Assembly (NCBI GenBank): GCA_964595465.1
Contig: CAZQQI010000006.1
Span: 655 to 64,654, forward strand
DNA: 64,000 bases
Reading direction: 5' to 3'
Source of the DNA: an uncultured Planctomycetales bacterium
Lineage (GTDB): Bacteria; Omnitrophota; Gorgyraeia; Zapsychrales; JANLHA01
Shown here: piece after piece, positions 4,763-14,796 of the stretch
Layout: every line of letters begins with the position of its first letter
Position numbering within the stretch: the first letter of the stretch is position 1
Translations under genes and position numbers: made by a program
The notes under the pieces: generated by a model
Seen by the model: the letters and a program-made list of their open reading frames with translations, nothing else
What the model was told of the DNA's origin: nothing
Databases searched by the model: none

Positions 4763-4785
4763 ACATATCCTTGAGGAGGGTAGAT

Positions 4786-6180
4786 ATGTTCACAGCGTTA
4801 AAGCGCCGGAAAATTGTTCAGTTTTTACGTCAGACCGATTATGACCGCCTGCTTCGCCATGGCGAACAGCGTTTGATCAAGGCCTTTCAGCGCGCTGCCC
4901 GTCAGGTCCCGGCTTACCGTCAGATCCTCAGTCAGAATCATGTCCCGGTCAGCGCCATTCAGCGTCCGGAGCATTTTCAGGCCCATGTCCCCGTCATTGA
5001 CAAAAAGATCTTTTCCGCTTACCCGTTAGCAGATCTTTGCTGCGGCGGGCGTCTGGACAAGGTCGCTGCGGTGATGTCCAGTTCCGGATTTTCCGGTTCA
5101 TTCTCCTATTCTCTGAGCACGCAGTCCGATGCCGAACTGACCGCGGATGTTGTCGATGCCTTGCTCGATGCCCGTTTTGATGCCTTTAACCGCAAGACTT
5201 TATTTATCAGCTGCCTGGGCATGGGGGTCAAGGTGCCGACACGGCTTCCCCTGGCTGAGGTCGGACAGAGGGCCGATATCGCTCTGGCGGTGATCGAAAA
5301 ACTGCAGTTATATTACGAGCAGATCATCATTATTGGCAACACCTATTTTTTGAAAAAGCTTATTGAAGACGGGCGGGACCGCGGCCTCGATTGGCCGCGT
5401 CTGAGGGTCCATGTGATCATGGGGGAAGACTGGTTTCCCGAATCCTACCGGGATTATCTGTCTTCTCTGCTGGGGATCTCAATGGATCATCCGCATACCA
5501 GTTCAGTTATGTCCACGATGGGGATCAGTGAGCTGGGTATCAGTCTCTTTCAGGAAGATGAGGATCTGGTGCGCATTCGGCGTATGGCGGTCAAGAATGA
5601 ACAGTTTTCCCGCGCTCTGTTCGGCCGGAACCTGCCGTTTACGCCGCTGATCTTTTATTACAATCCTCTTCAGGTCTATGTTGAGGAGGTGGAGGGTGAA
5701 CTGGTTTTTTCGAATCTTTCGCCTGACGCCATCCTCCCGTTGATGCGCTATGCCCCGCATGATCTCGGCGGCTGTATTAGCCGGGCGCGCTTAAAAAATG
5801 TGCTTCATGATTTTGGTGTCAGTGAGCTGATGCCGTCTTGGCCTCTTCCGCTGGTCTGGGTAGGAGGACGCGCCGGCAAGACCCTTGATGTCGACGGGCA
5901 AAATGTTACCCCGGAACAGATCAAAGCGCTGCTCTACAGCCATCCCGCGTTGGCGCAGGTGACAACGGGATATTTTCATTTATCCGGCAAACGACGGAAG
6001 CTGGTGATTGAGATCCAGCTAAAACCGGGGATCGACCCGGATGTCACTTTGCACAAAACAGCCCAGTCTGTTTTTTCGGGACTCACTCCCCGCAAACCGG
6101 AGATCACGATCTATCCGTACATAGAATTCCCCTACGGGATCGAACTGAATTATGAAGGAAAGTTCCGTTATGTGGGGTAG
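4786..6180 (+). CDS. Adenylate-forming enzyme, phenylacetate-CoA ligase/CapK/F390-synthetase-like (ANL superfamily)
   Basis: The ORF opens at TTG 4771 but the first ATG with an RBS is 4786. It has a P-loop-like SSSGFSGSFSYS motif and the overall PaaK/CapK-like architecture. It lies downstream of the exosortase/PEP-CTERM genes. Confidence 0.5.
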   Translation: MFTALKRRKIVQFLRQTDYDRLLRHGEQRLIKAFQRAARQVPAYRQILSQNHVPVSAIQRPEHFQAHVPVIDKKIFSAYPLADLCCGGRLDKVAAVMSSSGFSGSFSYSLSTQSDAELTADVVDALLDARFDAFNRKTLFISCLGMGVKVPTRLPLAEVGQRADIALAVIEKLQLYYEQIIIIGNTYFLKKLIEDGRDRGLDWPRLRVHVIMGEDWFPESYRDYLSSLLGISMDHPHTSSVMSTMGISELGISLFQEDEDLVRIRRMAVKNEQFSRALFGRNLPFTPLIFYYNPLQVYVEEVEGELVFSNLSPDAILPLMRYAPHDLGGCISRARLKNVLHDFGVSELMPSWPLPLVWVGGRAGKTLDVDGQNVTPEQIKALLYSHPALAQVTTGYFHLSGKRRKLVIEIQLKPGIDPDVTLHKTAQSVFSGLTPRKPEITIYPYIEFPYGIELNYEGKFRYVG

Positions 6181-6206: not shown

Positions 6207-6234
6207 TTTTTGTGCGGCCTAACCGGCACAAAAA
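6207..6234. terminator. Bidirectional hairpin between convergent genes
   Basis: TTTTGTGC-ggcctaacc-GGCACAAAA is an inverted repeat, centred between the + gene stop at 6180 and the - gene stop at 6274. Confidence 0.35.
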
Positions 6235-6273
6235 TCCGCCGATCAGATCATATTGTTTTTATGAAAGACGTGA

Positions 6274-7416
6274 TCAGAAATGCCATTTCAGCTGAACGTA
6301 ATACACATTTTCTGAATCCCCGAATTCCGTGTCGTTATCTCCCCAATAAAATTGAATGCCAGCCCCGATGTCCAGGTTTTGCCGGACGTTATAATTGATT
6401 TCGGGGTTATACGCCGCGCTGCCGCCTTCCAGATCACAGATAAAAAATTGATCCCAAATGATAAGCGGGGTGAATTTGTACTGCCACCAGAGGCTGGCGA
6501 GGTGTTTTCTCAGCGAGAGCAGATCGCGGGAATTCCTCAGGGAGTTGAGCAGGGCAAGGGGGTTATTTTCATCTGCGCCGCCGTTGTAAAAATATTCGAT
6601 CAGTCCGTAGGTCTTTTGATCAAAGGTGTAATCCAGACCCACTGCGGCCCGGGCAAACTGCCGGTTATCGTCCATGGTCGTATGCGTGACCTCTCCCCGG
6701 AAACCGGCATCCTGCAGATACCCGTCCCAGGTCAATCCGAAAATATCCGCTTCCTGCCGGTTGGCTGCGATGAAAGCGGTGTCAAAATCCCCAAGTTGTG
6801 TGTAGGCTTTGAGTCCGTAGGAGGAATCCTCCGCCCCGTCACCGGGCAGGGCAACCAGAGAGACCCCTTTAAATCCGTCGGGAGAATAGTTGAATGTGAC
6901 CCCGTCGATGCCGATACGTTCATCATATTCCAAGTCTAGTGGTCCGTTGGGATTAAAAAGGTCTGCCGGGCTGTAAAACCGCAGGTTGCCCCAGTCGACA
7001 GCCTGTTTTCCCGCCGCGGCCTGCCATTGCGGGGAATAATATTTCACGTATAAACGGTAGATCTTGTGATTGAGGTACAGATGGTCATTATCGACTGAAG
7101 CATGGTCCAGGTCAACATTGACGGCTTGATCCTGTTCTTTGTTGTGAATGGTCTGAAAATCTCCGGTATTGCCGAAGTCGTGAATGAGCGCCTCATTGTC
7201 CACCGCGATATAAAACTGCCAGGGATCATTGTGCGCCTCCATGGTCAGGCGCAGGCGGTTGAGATTGGCATTGATATCCTCTTCACTGTAAACGGATCGT
7301 GTATAAGTGTGGAGATTTTTGTAATATCCGCCGAAATCAAAGACCGGCGCGGCCTGGGCAGGGAGGGCTGAGAAAAGAAGAGTGGATAATACCGGGATAA
7401 GGCAGAGGTAGCGCAT
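6274..7416 (-). CDS. Outer-membrane beta-barrel protein (uncharacterised family), last gene of the Lol-like export operon
   Basis: It has a signal peptide (…ALPAQA), alternating amphipathic beta-strand-like segments rich in Y/G/D/N, and a C-terminal …QLKWHF with terminal aromatic Phe, typical of BAM substrates. Confidence 0.55.
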   Translation of the reverse strand: MRYLCLIPVLSTLLFSALPAQAAPVFDFGGYYKNLHTYTRSVYSEEDINANLNRLRLTMEAHNDPWQFYIAVDNEALIHDFGNTGDFQTIHNKEQDQAVNVDLDHASVDNDHLYLNHKIYRLYVKYYSPQWQAAAGKQAVDWGNLRFYSPADLFNPNGPLDLEYDERIGIDGVTFNYSPDGFKGVSLVALPGDGAEDSSYGLKAYTQLGDFDTAFIAANRQEADIFGLTWDGYLQDAGFRGEVTHTTMDDNRQFARAAVGLDYTFDQKTYGLIEYFYNGGADENNPLALLNSLRNSRDLLSLRKHLASLWWQYKFTPLIIWDQFFICDLEGGSAAYNPEINYNVRQNLDIGAGIQFYWGDNDTEFGDSENVYYVQLKWHF

Positions 7417-7420
7417 GGGA

Positions 7421-8110
7421 TCACTCCTTGGTTTGGTCGAGAATCATACCGTCGCGGATATGGACCAGACGGCGGGCCTTATCCATAACCAGAGGATCGT
7501 GGGTGGAAAAGACAAAGGTGACCTCTTTGTCCGCATTCAATTCTTTCATGAGTTCAATCAAAGATTCGGATGTGGCCGAATCCAGGTTGGCCGTCGGTTC
7601 ATCAGCGATAATAAGGCGGGGTTCGGCGACAATAGCCCGGGCCACAGCCACGCGCTGCTGCTGACCTCCGCTCATCTCATTGGGGAAGCGGTCAAGATAA
7701 TCCGCTAAACCGACGCGGCTTAAGGTGTCCTGTGCCCGGCGGGTGCGTTCTTCCGGCGCAAGGCCCTGCAGCAGCATAACGTATTCGACATTTTCCCGTG
7801 CGGTCAGGGTGTTGATCAGGTTATAGGCCTGAAAAATAAAGCCCAGAGAGCGGAGGCGGAAATCAGAAAGCTGGTCAGGACTGAGACTGGAAATATCCCG
7901 GTCTGCAAAATGTACCGTTCCGGCGGTCGGGTTGTCCAGGGCGCCGATGATATTCAGCAGAGAACTTTTGCCTGATCCAGAAGGTCCGGCAATGGCCAGG
8001 AAATCTCCGGAAAAGATATCCAGGGTGACCCCGCGCAATGCCGGTGTGGTGATGTCGCGTCCGGTCGTGTAGGTCTTGTGCAGATTGTTGATCCGTAATA
8101 ATGGTGTCAT
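7421..8110 (-). CDS. ABC transporter ATP-binding protein, LolD/MacB-ATPase-like
   Basis: Walker A GPSGSGKSSLL, ABC signature LSGGQQQRVA and Walker B LIIADEPT are present. It overlaps the upstream permease gene by 4 bp (ATGA). Confidence 0.85.
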   Translation of the reverse strand: MTPLLRINNLHKTYTTGRDITTPALRGVTLDIFSGDFLAIAGPSGSGKSSLLNIIGALDNPTAGTVHFADRDISSLSPDQLSDFRLRSLGFIFQAYNLINTLTARENVEYVMLLQGLAPEERTRRAQDTLSRVGLADYLDRFPNEMSGGQQQRVAVARAIVAEPRLIIADEPTANLDSATSESLIELMKELNADKEVTFVFSTHDPLVMDKARRLVHIRDGMILDQTKE

Positions 8111-9333
8111 AAGCTTCTTATCGCCTCAATGGGTTTCAGACGGGAGGCCAGCCAGGCCGGATAAATCGATACGCAGATGCTGGTAATCAGCACCAGGGCC
8201 GTGGAGACGGTTGTGTACATGGTGTTCAGACGGGGATAAATGACAGGGTCCATATAAAATGATGACAGCGCGCTGGTAAAAATTCCTAGATCAATGCCCT
8301 GGACATGAAACAGGGCAGTCAGGGAAATGCCCAGAATGGCGCCCATTAGACTGCCGATGCATCCCAGAAAGACGGATTCCCAGGCCACCATGGTCACGAT
8401 CTGCCCCCGCTTGGTACCCAGGGCCAGCAGAATGCCGAATTCGCGTGTGCGTTCTAGAACGCCCATGAGAACGGTGTTGAGGATGCCGATCGCCACGACG
8501 ATCATGACGATAAAGACAATGACCCAGATAAAGGTATTATCAAAATCGATCCATTGTTTCATGATTGGGGATACGGTCTGCCAGGGCAATATTTCCAGAG
8601 TATCAGTGTCCAGACGGGACCGGATCAGGTCTGCCATCTCTTGTGCCCGGTCGCCGCGTTGCAGTTTCAGCGCGATTTCCGATGTTTTATCCTGCATGAC
8701 AAAAAGGTTTTCCGCGGCCCGGTGGGTGATCAGGACCAGTCCGCGGTCGATCTCTTCGACTCCGCTGTCGATCAATCCGGAAATATAATAAGCGCTCGCG
8801 GCAATGCTGCCGTCCAGGGCCTGGGACATGATTACGATCTTGTCGTCAAGGCTGACCTTCAGGCCAGCGGCCAGATCTTTGCCGATCACGATGGTGTCGT
8901 TTTCTTCCGCAGAAAGAAAATTCCCCTCGCCCAGGCTTTTGTGCAGGCTGCTGATCCGGGTTTCTTTGTCCGGGTCCACCCCCAGGATCAGGGCACCGGA
9001 AGAAGATTCTGAAGAACTGATCAGGCCCTGAGCCCGGATACGCGGAGCGGAATAGCGGACACCCTCGATCGCGCGGATCCTTTCGAGCAGAGGGGCGGGG
9101 TCCTCAATATAGGTCTCAAGTTTTTGATGTTCGTGGAATCCCCGGGCATGGATCTGAATGTGTCCGATGGACAGGGACGTGTAATTATCGATCATCTGGA
9201 AGTGGGCGCCTTCGACGAAAGACCAGATAAAGATCAGTGCGCCGAGGCCGAAACCCACCGCGGATATGGTAATGAGCGAGCGCTTGCGGTTGCGGGTGAT
9301 GTTTCGCCAAGCTATCTTAAGGAAAGTGCGCAT
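8107..9333 (-). CDS. ABC transporter permease, FtsX/LolC/LolE family
   Basis: It has an N-terminal transmembrane helix, a large periplasmic domain and three C-terminal transmembrane helices (FtsX topology). Its 4-bp overlaps with both neighbours are typical of the MacB/LolCDE type II ABC exporters. Confidence 0.8.
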   Translation of the reverse strand: MRTFLKIAWRNITRNRKRSLITISAVGFGLGALIFIWSFVEGAHFQMIDNYTSLSIGHIQIHARGFHEHQKLETYIEDPAPLLERIRAIEGVRYSAPRIRAQGLISSSESSSGALILGVDPDKETRISSLHKSLGEGNFLSAEENDTIVIGKDLAAGLKVSLDDKIVIMSQALDGSIAASAYYISGLIDSGVEEIDRGLVLITHRAAENLFVMQDKTSEIALKLQRGDRAQEMADLIRSRLDTDTLEILPWQTVSPIMKQWIDFDNTFIWVIVFIVMIVVAIGILNTVLMGVLERTREFGILLALGTKRGQIVTMVAWESVFLGCIGSLMGAILGISLTALFHVQGIDLGIFTSALSSFYMDPVIYPRLNTMYTTVSTALVLITSICVSIYPAWLASRLKPIEAIRSL

Positions 9334-9335
9334 AC

Positions 9336-10091
9336 TTAAGGAGTTCGTTTGAGATACGTCCGTGTAAAAATATTCGGTTCGATCGGGGTGTTGTATTCGA
9401 CTTGCTCGACAACGATAACGGTCTGGTGCCCCTTTTTGATCTGCGAGGTCATGGTCCAGGTCCGGGGGATCTCTCGGTCGTTGACCGGCCCGATATCGCT
9501 GTAGGTCAGGACTTTCACCAGCCGTCCCCGTTCATCATAATATTCTTCTTTGAGAGGGACCGCGTCGGACTGGCGGACCCAGAGCAGGATCTTTCCCCAT
9601 ATGACCGGGGCGTCGGGTTTGGGGTCCAGGCGGATCTTATAGGCCTCGTTTCCGCTGATGGTTTCTTGGCCGACGATCGTATGGGTGTAATCATGCACGA
9701 TACTGCTTTGTTTGACCAGGTCATCGTTAGTGAAATCGCTGCCCATCCAGGGCTGAAGCATCATAGACGGAGGGATCTTGATGATCTTCTCGACGCTGGG
9801 GAGGTAGTTCCACATTTCATTACCGATGCGCAGAGACCCGATGCCGGCTTCTTTGGCCGGGGAGAGAATGCGGATGAAGGTTTTTTCTTTATCCTGGCTC
9901 CAAACATTCAGCGTGAGCTGGCGTTCCCAGCGGGGCGTGGTAACTGTCATGCGGTAAGTTCCGGCATTGCTCTGGCCCTGCATAATATTATCAGACCGGC
10001 GGACCAGTTCTGTAGCATCCGGCGCCTGCGCGATAGCGGTTCCCGCCGTGAAAAGTATCATTAGAAAGGGAATTAATCGTTTGCCGTTCAT
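9336..10091 (-). CDS. Outer membrane lipoprotein-sorting protein, LolA-like fold (periplasmic)
   Basis: It has a signal peptide (…TAIAQA). Its size and motifs are consistent with the LolA/RseB-like 'outer membrane lipoprotein-sorting protein' family (…EMWNYLPS…QPWMGSDFTNDDL…). It is the first gene of an operon with the FtsX permease, the ABC ATPase and the outer-membrane protein. Confidence 0.55.
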   Translation of the reverse strand: MNGKRLIPFLMILFTAGTAIAQAPDATELVRRSDNIMQGQSNAGTYRMTVTTPRWERQLTLNVWSQDKEKTFIRILSPAKEAGIGSLRIGNEMWNYLPSVEKIIKIPPSMMLQPWMGSDFTNDDLVKQSSIVHDYTHTIVGQETISGNEAYKIRLDPKPDAPVIWGKILLWVRQSDAVPLKEEYYDERGRLVKVLTYSDIGPVNDREIPRTWTMTSQIKKGHQTVIVVEQVEYNTPIEPNIFTRTYLKRTP

Positions 10092-10097
10092 GGTTTG

Positions 10098-10109
10098 TAT
10101 GATATCATA
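10098..10109. promoter_or_regulatory. Perfect 12-bp palindrome TATGATATCATA in a 75-bp divergent intergenic region
   Basis: It sits between the divergent starts at 10091 (-) and 10167 (+). A -10-like TATAAT lies at 10134-10139. Confidence 0.3.
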
Positions 10110-10166
10110 AAATCAAAGCTGAGCGAACCTTTTTATAATAAAATCAATGACTTAGAGCAGTCTATC

Positions 10167-10883
10167 ATGGGTGAACAATTTTCTTTTTTGTGTGTCGATC
10201 CATCGGATCAATCCATGATGGAGCAGATCTACCGCCTCCGTTTGAGGGTGTACGGGGAAGAGTGCGGATTTATCGATCCTAAGGATTATCCCGAAGGCAT
10301 GGAACGGGATGGCTATGATGATCAGGCAGCGCATTTTGTGGCTCTGGGAGAGCCCGGAGATGTGATCGGATATTTGCGTATGATCCTTCCGGGGAAATTA
10401 CAGCTTCCTTTTGAAGAGCATTTTCCTGAGCTGCAGATCGATCCGGATATCCGTACGGCCGGCGCCTACAGCGAGATTTCCCGGCTGGTGATCAGCAAAC
10501 GCCTGCGCCGTCGTCGTCATGATGGAATATATTATGAGCCGGAATTTCAGGACCGTGTGGTCAAGGCTGAAGACGGGCAGGAATTTATGCGCCGCGCTAA
10601 ACCCATGGCATTCGGTCTGTACCGGGAGATGTATCAGGAAAGCAAGCGCCGCGGGTTGAAAGAATGGTATTCGATTATGGAAAAGACGCTTTGGATCCTG
10701 CTTAAAGTCCATGGCTTTAATTTTAAATGTGTCGGAGAAGAGGTTGATATTTTCGGCCCAGTCCGTCCGTACCGGGGAAATATTGCCGGGATTGAAGAAG
10801 AGATTCGGACTAAGCATCCGGATTTTTGGGCTTATTTTACTGGAGATTCCTCCTGGGGTGTGCAGACGTCCCGGGTTTTTTAA
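10167..10883 (+). CDS. N-acyl amino acid synthase, PEP-CTERM/exosortase-system-associated type (LuxI/GNAT-like fold)
   Basis: The first ATG is at 10167 (MGEQFSFLCV…). The upstream TTG at 10095 would leave only 3 nt to the divergent gene. The family-typical N-terminus (…EQIYRLRLRVYGEECGFID…HFVALGEPGDVIGYLRMI) matches the exosortase-associated N-acyl amino acid synthase family. Confidence 0.6.
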   Translation: MGEQFSFLCVDPSDQSMMEQIYRLRLRVYGEECGFIDPKDYPEGMERDGYDDQAAHFVALGEPGDVIGYLRMILPGKLQLPFEEHFPELQIDPDIRTAGAYSEISRLVISKRLRRRRHDGIYYEPEFQDRVVKAEDGQEFMRRAKPMAFGLYREMYQESKRRGLKEWYSIMEKTLWILLKVHGFNFKCVGEEVDIFGPVRPYRGNIAGIEEEIRTKHPDFWAYFTGDSSWGVQTSRVF

Positions 10884-10898
10884 TCTGCGGTTTTTATT

Positions 10899-13850
10899 AT
10901 GACCTTATCCTCGCGTCATATCTATCAGGCGTTTCTGGATTCCGCGGAAGCTCACCGGGAAAAAGATGCCGTCCTTTATCAGCACGGCAAAAATTTCATT
11001 TCACAGAATTATGCGTGGCTGGAACGCCGTTCCCGCATCATGGCCCGGCAATTATGCCGAAAGCATCATATTCGACCAGGCGATCGGGTGGCACTGCTTT
11101 TGGAAAATCATCCGGAATTTGCCTGGTCTTTCCTGGGGGTTCTGGCGGCGGGAGGCGTTGTTGTTCCGCTTGATGTCCAGTATTCACCAGGTCAGATCCT
11201 GCGCATCTGTGAGCATGCCGGAGCGAAAATCGTGATCTCCCAGACGTCCCTGGATTATTCTCAATCCACCAAAGGTTCACTGCAATGGATTTTCGTGAAC
11301 GATCTGTCCGGCGATGAAAATGTTCCGTCCCAGCCATTATCAGACATAGAGGTGCCGGGAGGAGACGATCTCGCGGCCCTGTTCTATACTTCCGGGACGA
11401 CCGGAGAGCCGAAGGGGGTGATGCTGACTCACAATAATCTTCTGGCCAATGTTGACGCGATCCGGAAGATTAAGGTTGCGGTTGCTGATGATGTGGTCCT
11501 TTCCATGCTGCCTCTGCATCATACCTATGCGTTTACCACGACATTACTGACGCCGCTGTTGATCGGGGCCACGATCGCGTATCCCAAAAGCATTGCTTCA
11601 TCTGATCTGATGTACTGCATTAAGCAGGCCTGTGTGACGTTAATGGTCAGTGTCCCTGAAGTCTTCAAACTTCTACACCAGGCAGTTAAAAGGCAGATGG
11701 GTTCTCTGCCGCTCATGAAGCGCGCAGTTGCCCACTATGGCGGACAGCTGGCGTTGCCTCTGCGTAAACATATGCGCGTAAACGCCGGTAAAATGATTTT
11801 TCGGGATGTGCACCGCATCTTCGGCCCCTGTCTGAGGATGATGATCTCCGGCGGGGCTAAGCTGGATGCAGAGGTCGTCCGGGATTTTTACCGCTGGGGG
11901 TTTGCCCTGATCGAAGGATATGGCCTGACCGAGACATCTCCGGTCGTGGCGTTTTCTCTGCCGGACGATGCGCGCTTTGGTTCCGTCGGGAGGCCCTTGC
12001 CGGGAGTTGAAGCCGCCCTTTACGGGACGGATGAGAAAGGGGAGGGGGAAATCATTGTCCGCGGGCCGAATGTCATGCAGGGATATTACCGCAGTCCGGA
12101 AGAAACCCGCAAGGTCTTGCGTGACGGGTGGCTGTTTACCGGAGATTTGGGATCCATCGAGGCTGACGGATCGCTGACCATTAACGGACGGAAAAATGAT
12201 ATGATCGTGCTGAGCAGCGGGGAGAATATCTATCCGGCTGAGTTGGAAGAGATCTATGCCCGGACCCCGATGATCAAAGAGATCGGTGTGTTTGCCCGCG
12301 ATCCCGTTCATGAGGGCAGAGCTCAGCAGCTGGCAGCGGTTATTGTTCCGGATATCGGATATTTTCAGGAGATAGGCGAAGTCGATATCCGCGGAAAGCT
12401 CAAATGGGAATTAGAAAATATTTTTTCTTCTCTGCCCTCATATAAGCGGCTGGCCGGTTTTGTCATTTTCCGTCAGGATCTTCCCCGCACCCGGTTGGGC
12501 AAGCTCAAACGTTTTGAACTGCCGCATATTTATACTACAATCCAATCCTCCGGGAAGCTCGAACCATCCCGGGAGGAGGCATCCGTGGATAAACAGCCGG
12601 AACTTTTAACCCACGGGCCTCAGCTGGCGCTCACGTATTTGCAGAAACGTCTGGACCGCGAGGTTTCCATGTCGGATCATATTGAATTGGACCTGGGTCT
12701 GGATTCGCTGGAGCGCATTGAGGTCTTGCTGGAGATGCAGGAGAGCCTAGGGCTGGAAGTGCCGGAAGAAGATCTGATGGCGTTTTTTTCCTGCCAGACG
12801 GTGGGCGAGCTGTTTGAACGCCTTAAGGAGCTCCTTCGCCATCAGGCCGGCGCCGGGGATAAAGACGAAGATATGACCCTGCTGACCCAAAGCGCGCTTG
12901 CCTATATCAATAAACAGCTTAATGTTTCGGCTCAGCCGCAAGATCATCTTGAGCTCGATCTGGGTTTAGATTCTCTGGGCAGGATCGAATTGCTTATGGG
13001 CCTGCAGGAGCATCTTGGTCTTGAACTGAGTGAAGACGAGGCGATGTCGTTTTTTCAGTGCCAGACCATCAGCGAACTGATGTCCCGTCTGCAGGTGGTG
13101 ATCGGAAAAGAAACCATTCATGGTCACTGGGGTGAAGTCTCCTGGGAAGATATTATGAGGCAGGACCCTTCGGAACAGAGGAAGGAATCGCTGAGGCTGA
13201 ACGGGACAGGAATTGGGGGGAAGGCACTGAATTTTTTTCTGGCGATGCTACTTAAGATGCTTTTTAAGGTATTCTTTTTATTACGTATCGAAGGGAGGGA
13301 GCGTTTGCCTGATAAGGGGCCCTATGTGATCTGCCCCAATCATACTACGTATTTGGATGCTTTGTTCGTTATGGCCGCTCTGCCGTTCCCGGTTCTTCTG
13401 CAGACCTTTTTTCTCGGCGACGATCGTTTTTTGTCTCGAGGTCCGTTGAGATACTGTCACCACGTTTTGAGGCTGATCCCGATTAAATTCACCTTTGATA
13501 TGGTCGACGCGCTGCGTACCTGTGCGTATGTTCTCAAGCATAATCGGATCGTGTGCTATTTTCCGGAAGGACAGCGCACCGTCGGTCATGAGATCGGAAA
13601 GTTTAAGAAGGGCATTGGGATTCTGCTGAAAGAGGCCGCAGTCCCGGCCGTACCGGTTTACCTTAAGGGGGGAGAGAAGGTCTGGCCTCGAGGACGCAAA
13701 TGGCCCCGGCCCGGGAGGATCCGTGTGGTGGTCGGCGAGCCGGTTTATCCTGAAACGCTGCATTTTGAATTGACCGCTCAGGAAGACCCCTATATGCGTA
13801 TCGCTGAAAAGCTGAAAGAAAAGATGAGAAACCTTAAAGATACTTATTAA
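10899..13850 (+). CDS. Four-domain fusion: acyl-AMP/CoA ligase (AMP-binding), ACP, ACP, then 1-acyl-sn-glycerol-3-phosphate acyltransferase-like (PlsC/LPLAT) domain
   Basis: The AMP-binding core motif is YTSGTTGEPKGVMLTHNN. Two phosphopantetheine attachment sites are LDLGLDSLERIE (Ser codon at 12705-12707) and LDLGLDSLGRIE (Ser codon at 12974-12976). The C-terminal acyltransferase carries the HX4D motif (CPNHTTYLDA) and FPEGQRT. Confidence 0.8.
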   Translation: MTLSSRHIYQAFLDSAEAHREKDAVLYQHGKNFISQNYAWLERRSRIMARQLCRKHHIRPGDRVALLLENHPEFAWSFLGVLAAGGVVVPLDVQYSPGQILRICEHAGAKIVISQTSLDYSQSTKGSLQWIFVNDLSGDENVPSQPLSDIEVPGGDDLAALFYTSGTTGEPKGVMLTHNNLLANVDAIRKIKVAVADDVVLSMLPLHHTYAFTTTLLTPLLIGATIAYPKSIASSDLMYCIKQACVTLMVSVPEVFKLLHQAVKRQMGSLPLMKRAVAHYGGQLALPLRKHMRVNAGKMIFRDVHRIFGPCLRMMISGGAKLDAEVVRDFYRWGFALIEGYGLTETSPVVAFSLPDDARFGSVGRPLPGVEAALYGTDEKGEGEIIVRGPNVMQGYYRSPEETRKVLRDGWLFTGDLGSIEADGSLTINGRKNDMIVLSSGENIYPAELEEIYARTPMIKEIGVFARDPVHEGRAQQLAAVIVPDIGYFQEIGEVDIRGKLKWELENIFSSLPSYKRLAGFVIFRQDLPRTRLGKLKRFELPHIYTTIQSSGKLEPSREEASVDKQPELLTHGPQLALTYLQKRLDREVSMSDHIELDLGLDSLERIEVLLEMQESLGLEVPEEDLMAFFSCQTVGELFERLKELLRHQAGAGDKDEDMTLLTQSALAYINKQLNVSAQPQDHLELDLGLDSLGRIELLMGLQEHLGLELSEDEAMSFFQCQTISELMSRLQVVIGKETIHGHWGEVSWEDIMRQDPSEQRKESLRLNGTGIGGKALNFFLAMLLKMLFKVFFLLRIEGRERLPDKGPYVICPNHTTYLDALFVMAALPFPVLLQTFFLGDDRFLSRGPLRYCHHVLRLIPIKFTFDMVDALRTCAYVLKHNRIVCYFPEGQRTVGHEIGKFKKGIGILLKEAAVPAVPVYLKGGEKVWPRGRKWPRPGRIRVVVGEPVYPETLHFELTAQEDPYMRIAEKLKEKMRNLKDTY

Positions 13851-13917: not shown

Positions 13918-14796
13918 GTGATCATGACGACAAAATTCTCACCCGGACAGTTCTTTTCTTTGCTCCGTTCCGCAGTTCAGACCATCATTCACCATCCTCT
14001 TATCCTTTATCCTTTCACAATTTTATTTATGCTTCAGCTCTTCATTATGGAGATCCTGTTTTTTGCTCCACGCTATCCGTTATCGCAATTCTTTTCCCCG
14101 GTTATAAGCAGGCTTGCCGGAGAGCAGTTTCTGCATTATCCCTTAAATTTCATGCTTCTTAACCGCTGGTTTCAGAGTATTCAAATCCCCTTTTATCTGT
14201 TTGTGTCCTCGTTTTTTATCGGCGCTGCGGTTTACGCGATTTATTTGATCAATCGGGATGAAAACTTGAATTGGGGGAAGGTTTTCAAGAGGACGCTTAA
14301 GCAGTATATTCATTTGGTGGTAGCCGCGGCGATTTCGGTTGGTTTTGTGTATATCCTCAGCTGGCTTTATAGCCTGCTGGTGCAGCGCGCCTTGCAGATA
14401 CGCTCAACCGCGGGGATCTATTTTATGATCAAGAAGGCCGTGATCCTGGGCGCGCCCTATGCCAATTTATTATTTTCTACGTTGATCATTACTATGTTTG
14501 CGTTCGTTATTCCTATTATCATGATCGAGGGGAAAAAGGTTTTTTCAGCCTTTGCTCAAAATTTTAAGGTGCTTGGCGGGGTTTTCTGGATGTTATTCCT
14601 GGCGATGCTGGCATCCGGTTTGTTTTACCTCCCTGTCCTTTTATTGCGTTCCAACGCGGAGTGGGGCAGGAGCGTTTTTAGTCCGGAGATGTGGCAGATC
14701 CTCATGATCGCGGGTGTGGCCTTAATGCTCGTGATCGATGCCGTGCAGTATACCGCTATAACTATGACGTACTTGCTAAAAAAGGATGCGGAATGA
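13918..14796 (+). CDS. Polytopic membrane protein, function unknown
   Basis: It has about 7 predicted transmembrane helices and no recognisable catalytic motif. It overlaps the next gene by ATGA. Confidence 0.5.
   Translation: MIMTTKFSPGQFFSLLRSAVQTIIHHPLILYPFTILFMLQLFIMEILFFAPRYPLSQFFSPVISRLAGEQFLHYPLNFMLLNRWFQSIQIPFYLFVSSFFIGAAVYAIYLINRDENLNWGKVFKRTLKQYIHLVVAAAISVGFVYILSWLYSLLVQRALQIRSTAGIYFMIKKAVILGAPYANLLFSTLIITMFAFVIPIIMIEGKKVFSAFAQNFKVLGGVFWMLFLAMLASGLFYLPVLLLRSNAEWGRSVFSPEMWQILMIAGVALMLVIDAVQYTAITMTYLLKKDAE

Follow-up and report, generated by a model that had tools for sequence, protein, structure and literature searches.

The four genes at positions 6274-10091 on the minus strand of the window (the whole 64,000-nucleotide stretch analysed, positions 655-64,654 of the forward strand of contig CAZQQI010000006.1, assembly GCA_964595465.1, from an uncultured Omnitrophota bacterium) are predicted, from their sequences and from structure models, to encode an ATP-driven exporter that spans the cell envelope and whose cargo is lipidic or amphiphilic, the likeliest candidate being the acylated amino-acid lipid of the neighbouring N-acyl amino acid synthase (NAS) cassette; we give this reading a probability of about 0.55. 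In transcriptional order the genes encode a LolA-superfamily carrier (251 aa, positions 10091-9336), an FtsX permease (408 aa, 9333-8107), an ABC ATPase (229 aa, 8110-7421) and an outer-membrane barrel (380 aa, 7416-6274). The first-pass annotation had placed four genes here; the positions of their minus-strand open reading frames were confirmed, and domain matches supported the identities and order given to them. The 4-bp overlaps it described between the genes exist only at the permease/ATPase junction (8107-8110), the carrier/permease and ATPase/barrel junctions being gaps of 2 bp and 4 bp. Since strong homologues of each of the four occur in conserved synteny at more than 100 loci, these are genes and not chance reading frames. 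This kind of four-gene machine is widespread.

A domain search matched the carrier (9336..10091) to PF17131, LolA_like (5e-60), and its best sequence match in the PDB was 9tp6, LolA3 of P. gingivalis (E 2e-25). Foldseek superposed the AF2 model of the carrier (pLDDT 88) on 3buu, 9tp6, 3bk5 and 4z48 with TM scores of 0.77-0.82, a range that covers LolA3, NE2245 and a DUF1329-family protein (0.82 for the last), whereas true LolAs gave only 0.42-0.46. On the PF17131 match and these low scores the carrier was rejected as a LolA orthologue, and by sequence and modelled fold it is best placed, as a periplasmic protein, in the uncharacterised TP_0789/LolA3/DUF1329-like branch. Its signal peptide is of the signal-peptidase-I type, with cleavage after AQA23, and a lipobox is absent from the carrier as from 108 of 120 carrier homologues. 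The NCBI start lies 10 codons later, giving 241 aa; the longer start was preferred because it retains the basic n-region of the signal peptide (K4, R5). Deletion of LolA3 in F. johnsoniae gave no phenotype in the assays reported (PMC11885536).

The permease (8107..9333) matched MacB_PCD (1.5e-15) and FtsX (2e-18), and has four TM helices with a periplasmic MacB_PCD domain of ~220 aa between TM1 and TM2, features that predict a type VII ABC permease of the MacB/LolC fold. Among solved structures it came closest to LolF, which aligned over permease residues 78-406 (E 2e-21), and to LolE, which aligned over the full length (E 2.5e-20); MacB aligned with it in the TM part only. Against TIGR02212 (lolCE) it scored 154 bits, where the cut-off is 362. 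The ATPase (7421..8110) matched ABC_tran (5e-34) and scored 217 bits for LolD (cut-off 308), 217 bits for the MacB nucleotide-binding domain and 199 bits for DevA; as these NCBIfam scores were below cut-off, it reached no equivalog. A LolCDE- or MacB-type exporter had been proposed initially, and the resemblance to the MacB/LolC fold holds, but the Lol equivalog scores all fall far short. Because there is a single permease gene, a homodimer is expected, which suggests a LolF-like arrangement. Among the open reading frames scanned across the window there was neither a membrane-fusion protein (HlyD-family adaptor) nor an OEP/TolC protein, so the MacAB-TolC match that the first-pass annotation had raised as a counter-possibility did not materialise.

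The barrel (6274..7416) has homologues in 68 clusters. Its classification by profile HMM yielded no Pfam or NCBIfam match and placed it outside PF06980, but hhalign gave an 88% probability against DUF1302, and the barrel is probably a remote relative of that family. The confident AF2 model (pLDDT 89) is an 18-stranded beta-barrel, and the protein ends in ...KWHF, with Phe the final residue in 57 of 68 relatives, in agreement with its earlier description as an outer-membrane barrel with a terminal Phe. It carries a signal-peptidase-I type signal peptide with cleavage after AQA and no lipobox. The fold resembles OprD, AlgE and Wzi, and the most conserved segment, GKQxIDWGxMRFYSPxDLFNP (residues about 136-167), lies in the long loop after strand 5.

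The evidence for the cargo comes from the cassette on the other side of the carrier gene. The NAS gene (10167..10883, plus strand, 238 aa, identical in the NCBI annotation) matched the PEP-CTERM/exosortase-associated family TIGR03694 with 159.9 bits (cut-off 112), as well as Acetyltransf_5, Autoind_synth and FeeM. It is followed by the gene for a 983-aa protein in which an acyl-AMP ligase, two carrier domains and a PlsC-type acyltransferase are fused (10899..13850, plus strand; AMP-binding 1.6e-81, PP-binding in two stretches, Acyltransferase PF01553 1.2e-19). NAS is conserved next to the module in relatives, and the fusion is conserved with NAS in Omnitrophota-type loci. Searching from the barrel gave 25 complete Omnitrophota-type (clade-A) modules, and in 23 of them NAS lies no more than 10 kb away, usually in divergent orientation to the carrier gene. 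This adjacency holds at only 38-65% protein identity, and the synteny persists across an IS insertion. In the reverse direction, 19 metagenome loci anchored on NAS and extending 6 kb or more on each side were examined; 13 of them carry the module, as do 11 of the 14 among them that also have the ligase-acyltransferase gene. NAS also adjoins independently arranged loci of the order ABC>FtsX>LolA-like>DUF1302 (L157/L167 and L160/L161); in L161, from a distant lineage, NAS and these four genes are tightly packed and codirectional, and the barrel is a bona fide DUF1302 protein. The link between exporter operon and lipid cassette that had been suspected from this one locus is thus substantiated.

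The linkage is not exclusive. Some NAS cassettes (L087, L141) have no module within 10 kb, and about 50 Burkholderiales loci carry the module without NAS, so the cargo class is not necessarily the NAS product. It is conceivable, though unlikely, that the module is a dedicated Lol-like route that moves C-terminally lipid-anchored PEP-CTERM proteins to the outer membrane or surface, the exosortase exchanging the C-terminal PEP-CTERM anchor for a lipid, which might be the product of the NAS cassette. The module does have the NAS cassette to one side and, to the other, EpsI, a sugar transferase and the genes for three PEP-CTERM proteins; where the locus is split (L168/L094), it has remained beside the exosortase/EpsI/PEP-CTERM block and NAS is about 100 kb away, and in L014 it adjoins a PEP-CTERM gene without NAS. 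The second architecture, too, has PEP-CTERM proteins nearby in L157 and L167, and LolF and LolE, the nearest solved relatives of the permease, are lipoprotein extractors. Against this, bacterial exosortases are not known to attach lipids. The L160/L161 loci have NAS and the module but no PEP-CTERM ORF, and tblastn found no homologues of EpsI or of the window's PEP-CTERM protein in the Burkholderiales module loci examined, although their carriers are 47-57% identical; family annotation of two of the Burkholderiales loci likewise gave no exosortase, EpsI or PEP-CTERM family. Nor is the carrier LolA-like in the features of lipoprotein hand-over, its homologue LolA3 of P. gingivalis lacking the Arg of the beta2-beta3 loop and showing no LolB binding (PMC13103446).

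The Burkholderiales loci also bear on the idea that the module is a general pump, serving efflux or envelope maintenance and acting on hydrophobic or stress-related compounds, as suggested for AmeABCD and for DUF1302/DUF1329/RND clusters, with no specific relation to the lipid cassette. There the module sits in mobile metal-stress islands: of 39 loci, 27 have a heavy-metal P-type ATPase, 21 an FtsH paralogue, 16 DedA and 15 UbiB, and chromate genes, Cus genes and IS elements also occur. In Bacteroidota, iron limitation induces TetR-controlled ABC/MMPL operons that contain PF17131 genes (PMC10434189), and phenotypes involving monoterpenes, p-cresol and Tween have been tied to DUF1302/DUF1329 genes (PMC6394551; 10.1101/072470; 10.1101/2020.07.04.188060). 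Such a pump is nevertheless improbable, since mere hitch-hiking is hard to square with NAS adjacency at 38-65% identity and its recurrence where the genes are ordered differently and the barrel is a true DUF1302 protein. Export of the exopolysaccharide of the exosortase-linked locus through an AlgE/Wzi-like barrel is very unlikely: OprD/Occ substrate channels match the barrel equally well, its conserved companions are a protein with a lipid-carrier fold and a pump of the MacB/LolC fold instead of Wza/Wzc, Wzm/Wzt or AlgK-like proteins, and the Burkholderiales loci examined have no polysaccharide genes. Least credible is that these genes are the organism's housekeeping LolCDE/LolA system or a MacAB-TolC pump, for although the top-ranking NCBIfam families are lolCE and LolD or MacB, the shortfall in score, the PF17131 carrier (TM about 0.45 to true LolAs) and the lack of an adaptor and TolC among the scanned reading frames speak against both, and the module also occurs in Ralstonia and Burkholderia, betaproteobacteria, which generally have canonical LolABCDE already.

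For the lipid exporter favoured here, we infer a direction of transport, an order of hand-over and a cargo that follow the Lol/Lpt principle with different parts. ATP hydrolysis in the cytoplasm would drive the large periplasmic domain of the homodimeric permease, pulling the cargo out of the inner membrane's outer leaflet. The cargo, most likely made by the divergent NAS and acyl-AMP-ligase/ACP/PlsC-acyltransferase cassette of the PEP-CTERM/exosortase locus, would pass to the hydrophobic groove of the soluble carrier, which may then dock on, or stay bound to, the 18-stranded DUF1302-like barrel and so let the cargo enter or cross the outer membrane. As type VII transporters do not flip their substrates over the inner membrane, the model also needs a separate flipping step; a conserved polytopic membrane protein (13918-14796) is a possible flippase.

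The closest described analogues are clusters of DUF1302, DUF1329, BNR (COG4447) and RND genes, whose mechanism is itself uncharacterised; examples are AmeABCD of Castellaniella defragrans, Sama_1588-1591 and P. putida PP_0765/0766. DUF1302, DUF1329, BNR and RND exporter genes are cofit, and export of an envelope component has been proposed for them (bioRxiv 10.1101/072470); AmeABCD, an RND system that includes DUF1302 and DUF1329 proteins, is tied to monoterpene tolerance (PMC6394551), and AlphaFold-Multimer predicted a DUF1302-DUF1329 complex with an ipTM of 0.84 (PMC13499233). Both kinds of system combine an 18-stranded AlgE/Occ-like barrel, a periplasmic LolA-superfamily protein and an inner-membrane exporter. 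They differ in that the module is energised by a type VII ABC pair (FtsX and ATPase) and not an RND/MMPL pump, lacks the BNR protein, has a PF17131 carrier (about 250 aa) instead of PF07044, and has a barrel outside PF06980. A sister architecture of the module does use a bona fide DUF1302 barrel, a further likeness to these clusters. From the carrier branch and the remote DUF1302 barrel, the module is therefore an ABC-driven variant of these poorly understood envelope systems. Aryl-polyene and flexirubin loci, which the first-pass annotation had likened it to, are less close: their LolA2/LolB2 genes are LolA-superfamily members inside a lipid or pigment locus and presumed carriers of hydrophobic products, but they are of another LolA subfamily, paired with a LolB-like lipoprotein, and the study that reports them describes neither an FtsX pump nor a DUF1302-like barrel alongside (PMC11885536). 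With LolABCDE/LolDF the module shares a MacB-fold ABC extractor and a soluble LolA-fold carrier, yet it is not an orthologous set because it misses the equivalog cut-offs, its carrier is of the LolA3/TP_0789 branch, and its outer-membrane partner is a barrel and not the lipoprotein LolB. MacAB-TolC and DevBCA-HgdD have the same MacB_PCD and FtsX permease and a LolD/MacB/DevA-like ATPase, whereas the module has a soluble carrier and porin-like barrel in place of the membrane-fusion adaptor and TolC-family duct, and an ATPase unfused to the permease. Lpt (LptB2FGC-LptA-LptDE) and Mla (MlaFEDB-MlaC-MlaA/OmpC) also join an inner-membrane ABC machine to a lipid-binding protein in the periplasm and a barrel component in the outer membrane. 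Here the likeness is an analogy of design, the movement of lipid between membranes; the protein families are unrelated at every position, and neither bridge-forming jellyroll domains nor MCE domains were detected.

Downstream of the barrel gene, a 469-aa putative adenylating enzyme (4771..6180, plus strand) was recognised by synteny and a weak PaaK N-terminal similarity only. In most relatives this gene lies directly downstream of the barrel on the same strand, and here it is inverted and convergent; it is paired with NAS even in Acidovorax (L085/L086). The convergent intergenic region contains a stable hairpin (6207..6237; minus-strand fold -24.3 kcal/mol, z -3.8), which is not a canonical intrinsic terminator because on either strand the U-run precedes the stem and the A-run follows it. 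The divergent region between the carrier gene and the NAS ATG (10167) measures 75 bp (10092..10166), as originally reported, or 105 bp with NCBI's later carrier start. No sigma-54 consensus was found in 10092..10166, which contains a perfect 12-bp palindrome, TATGATATCATA, at 10099-10110 and weak sigma-70-like matches, predicted promoter-like sites, on both strands.

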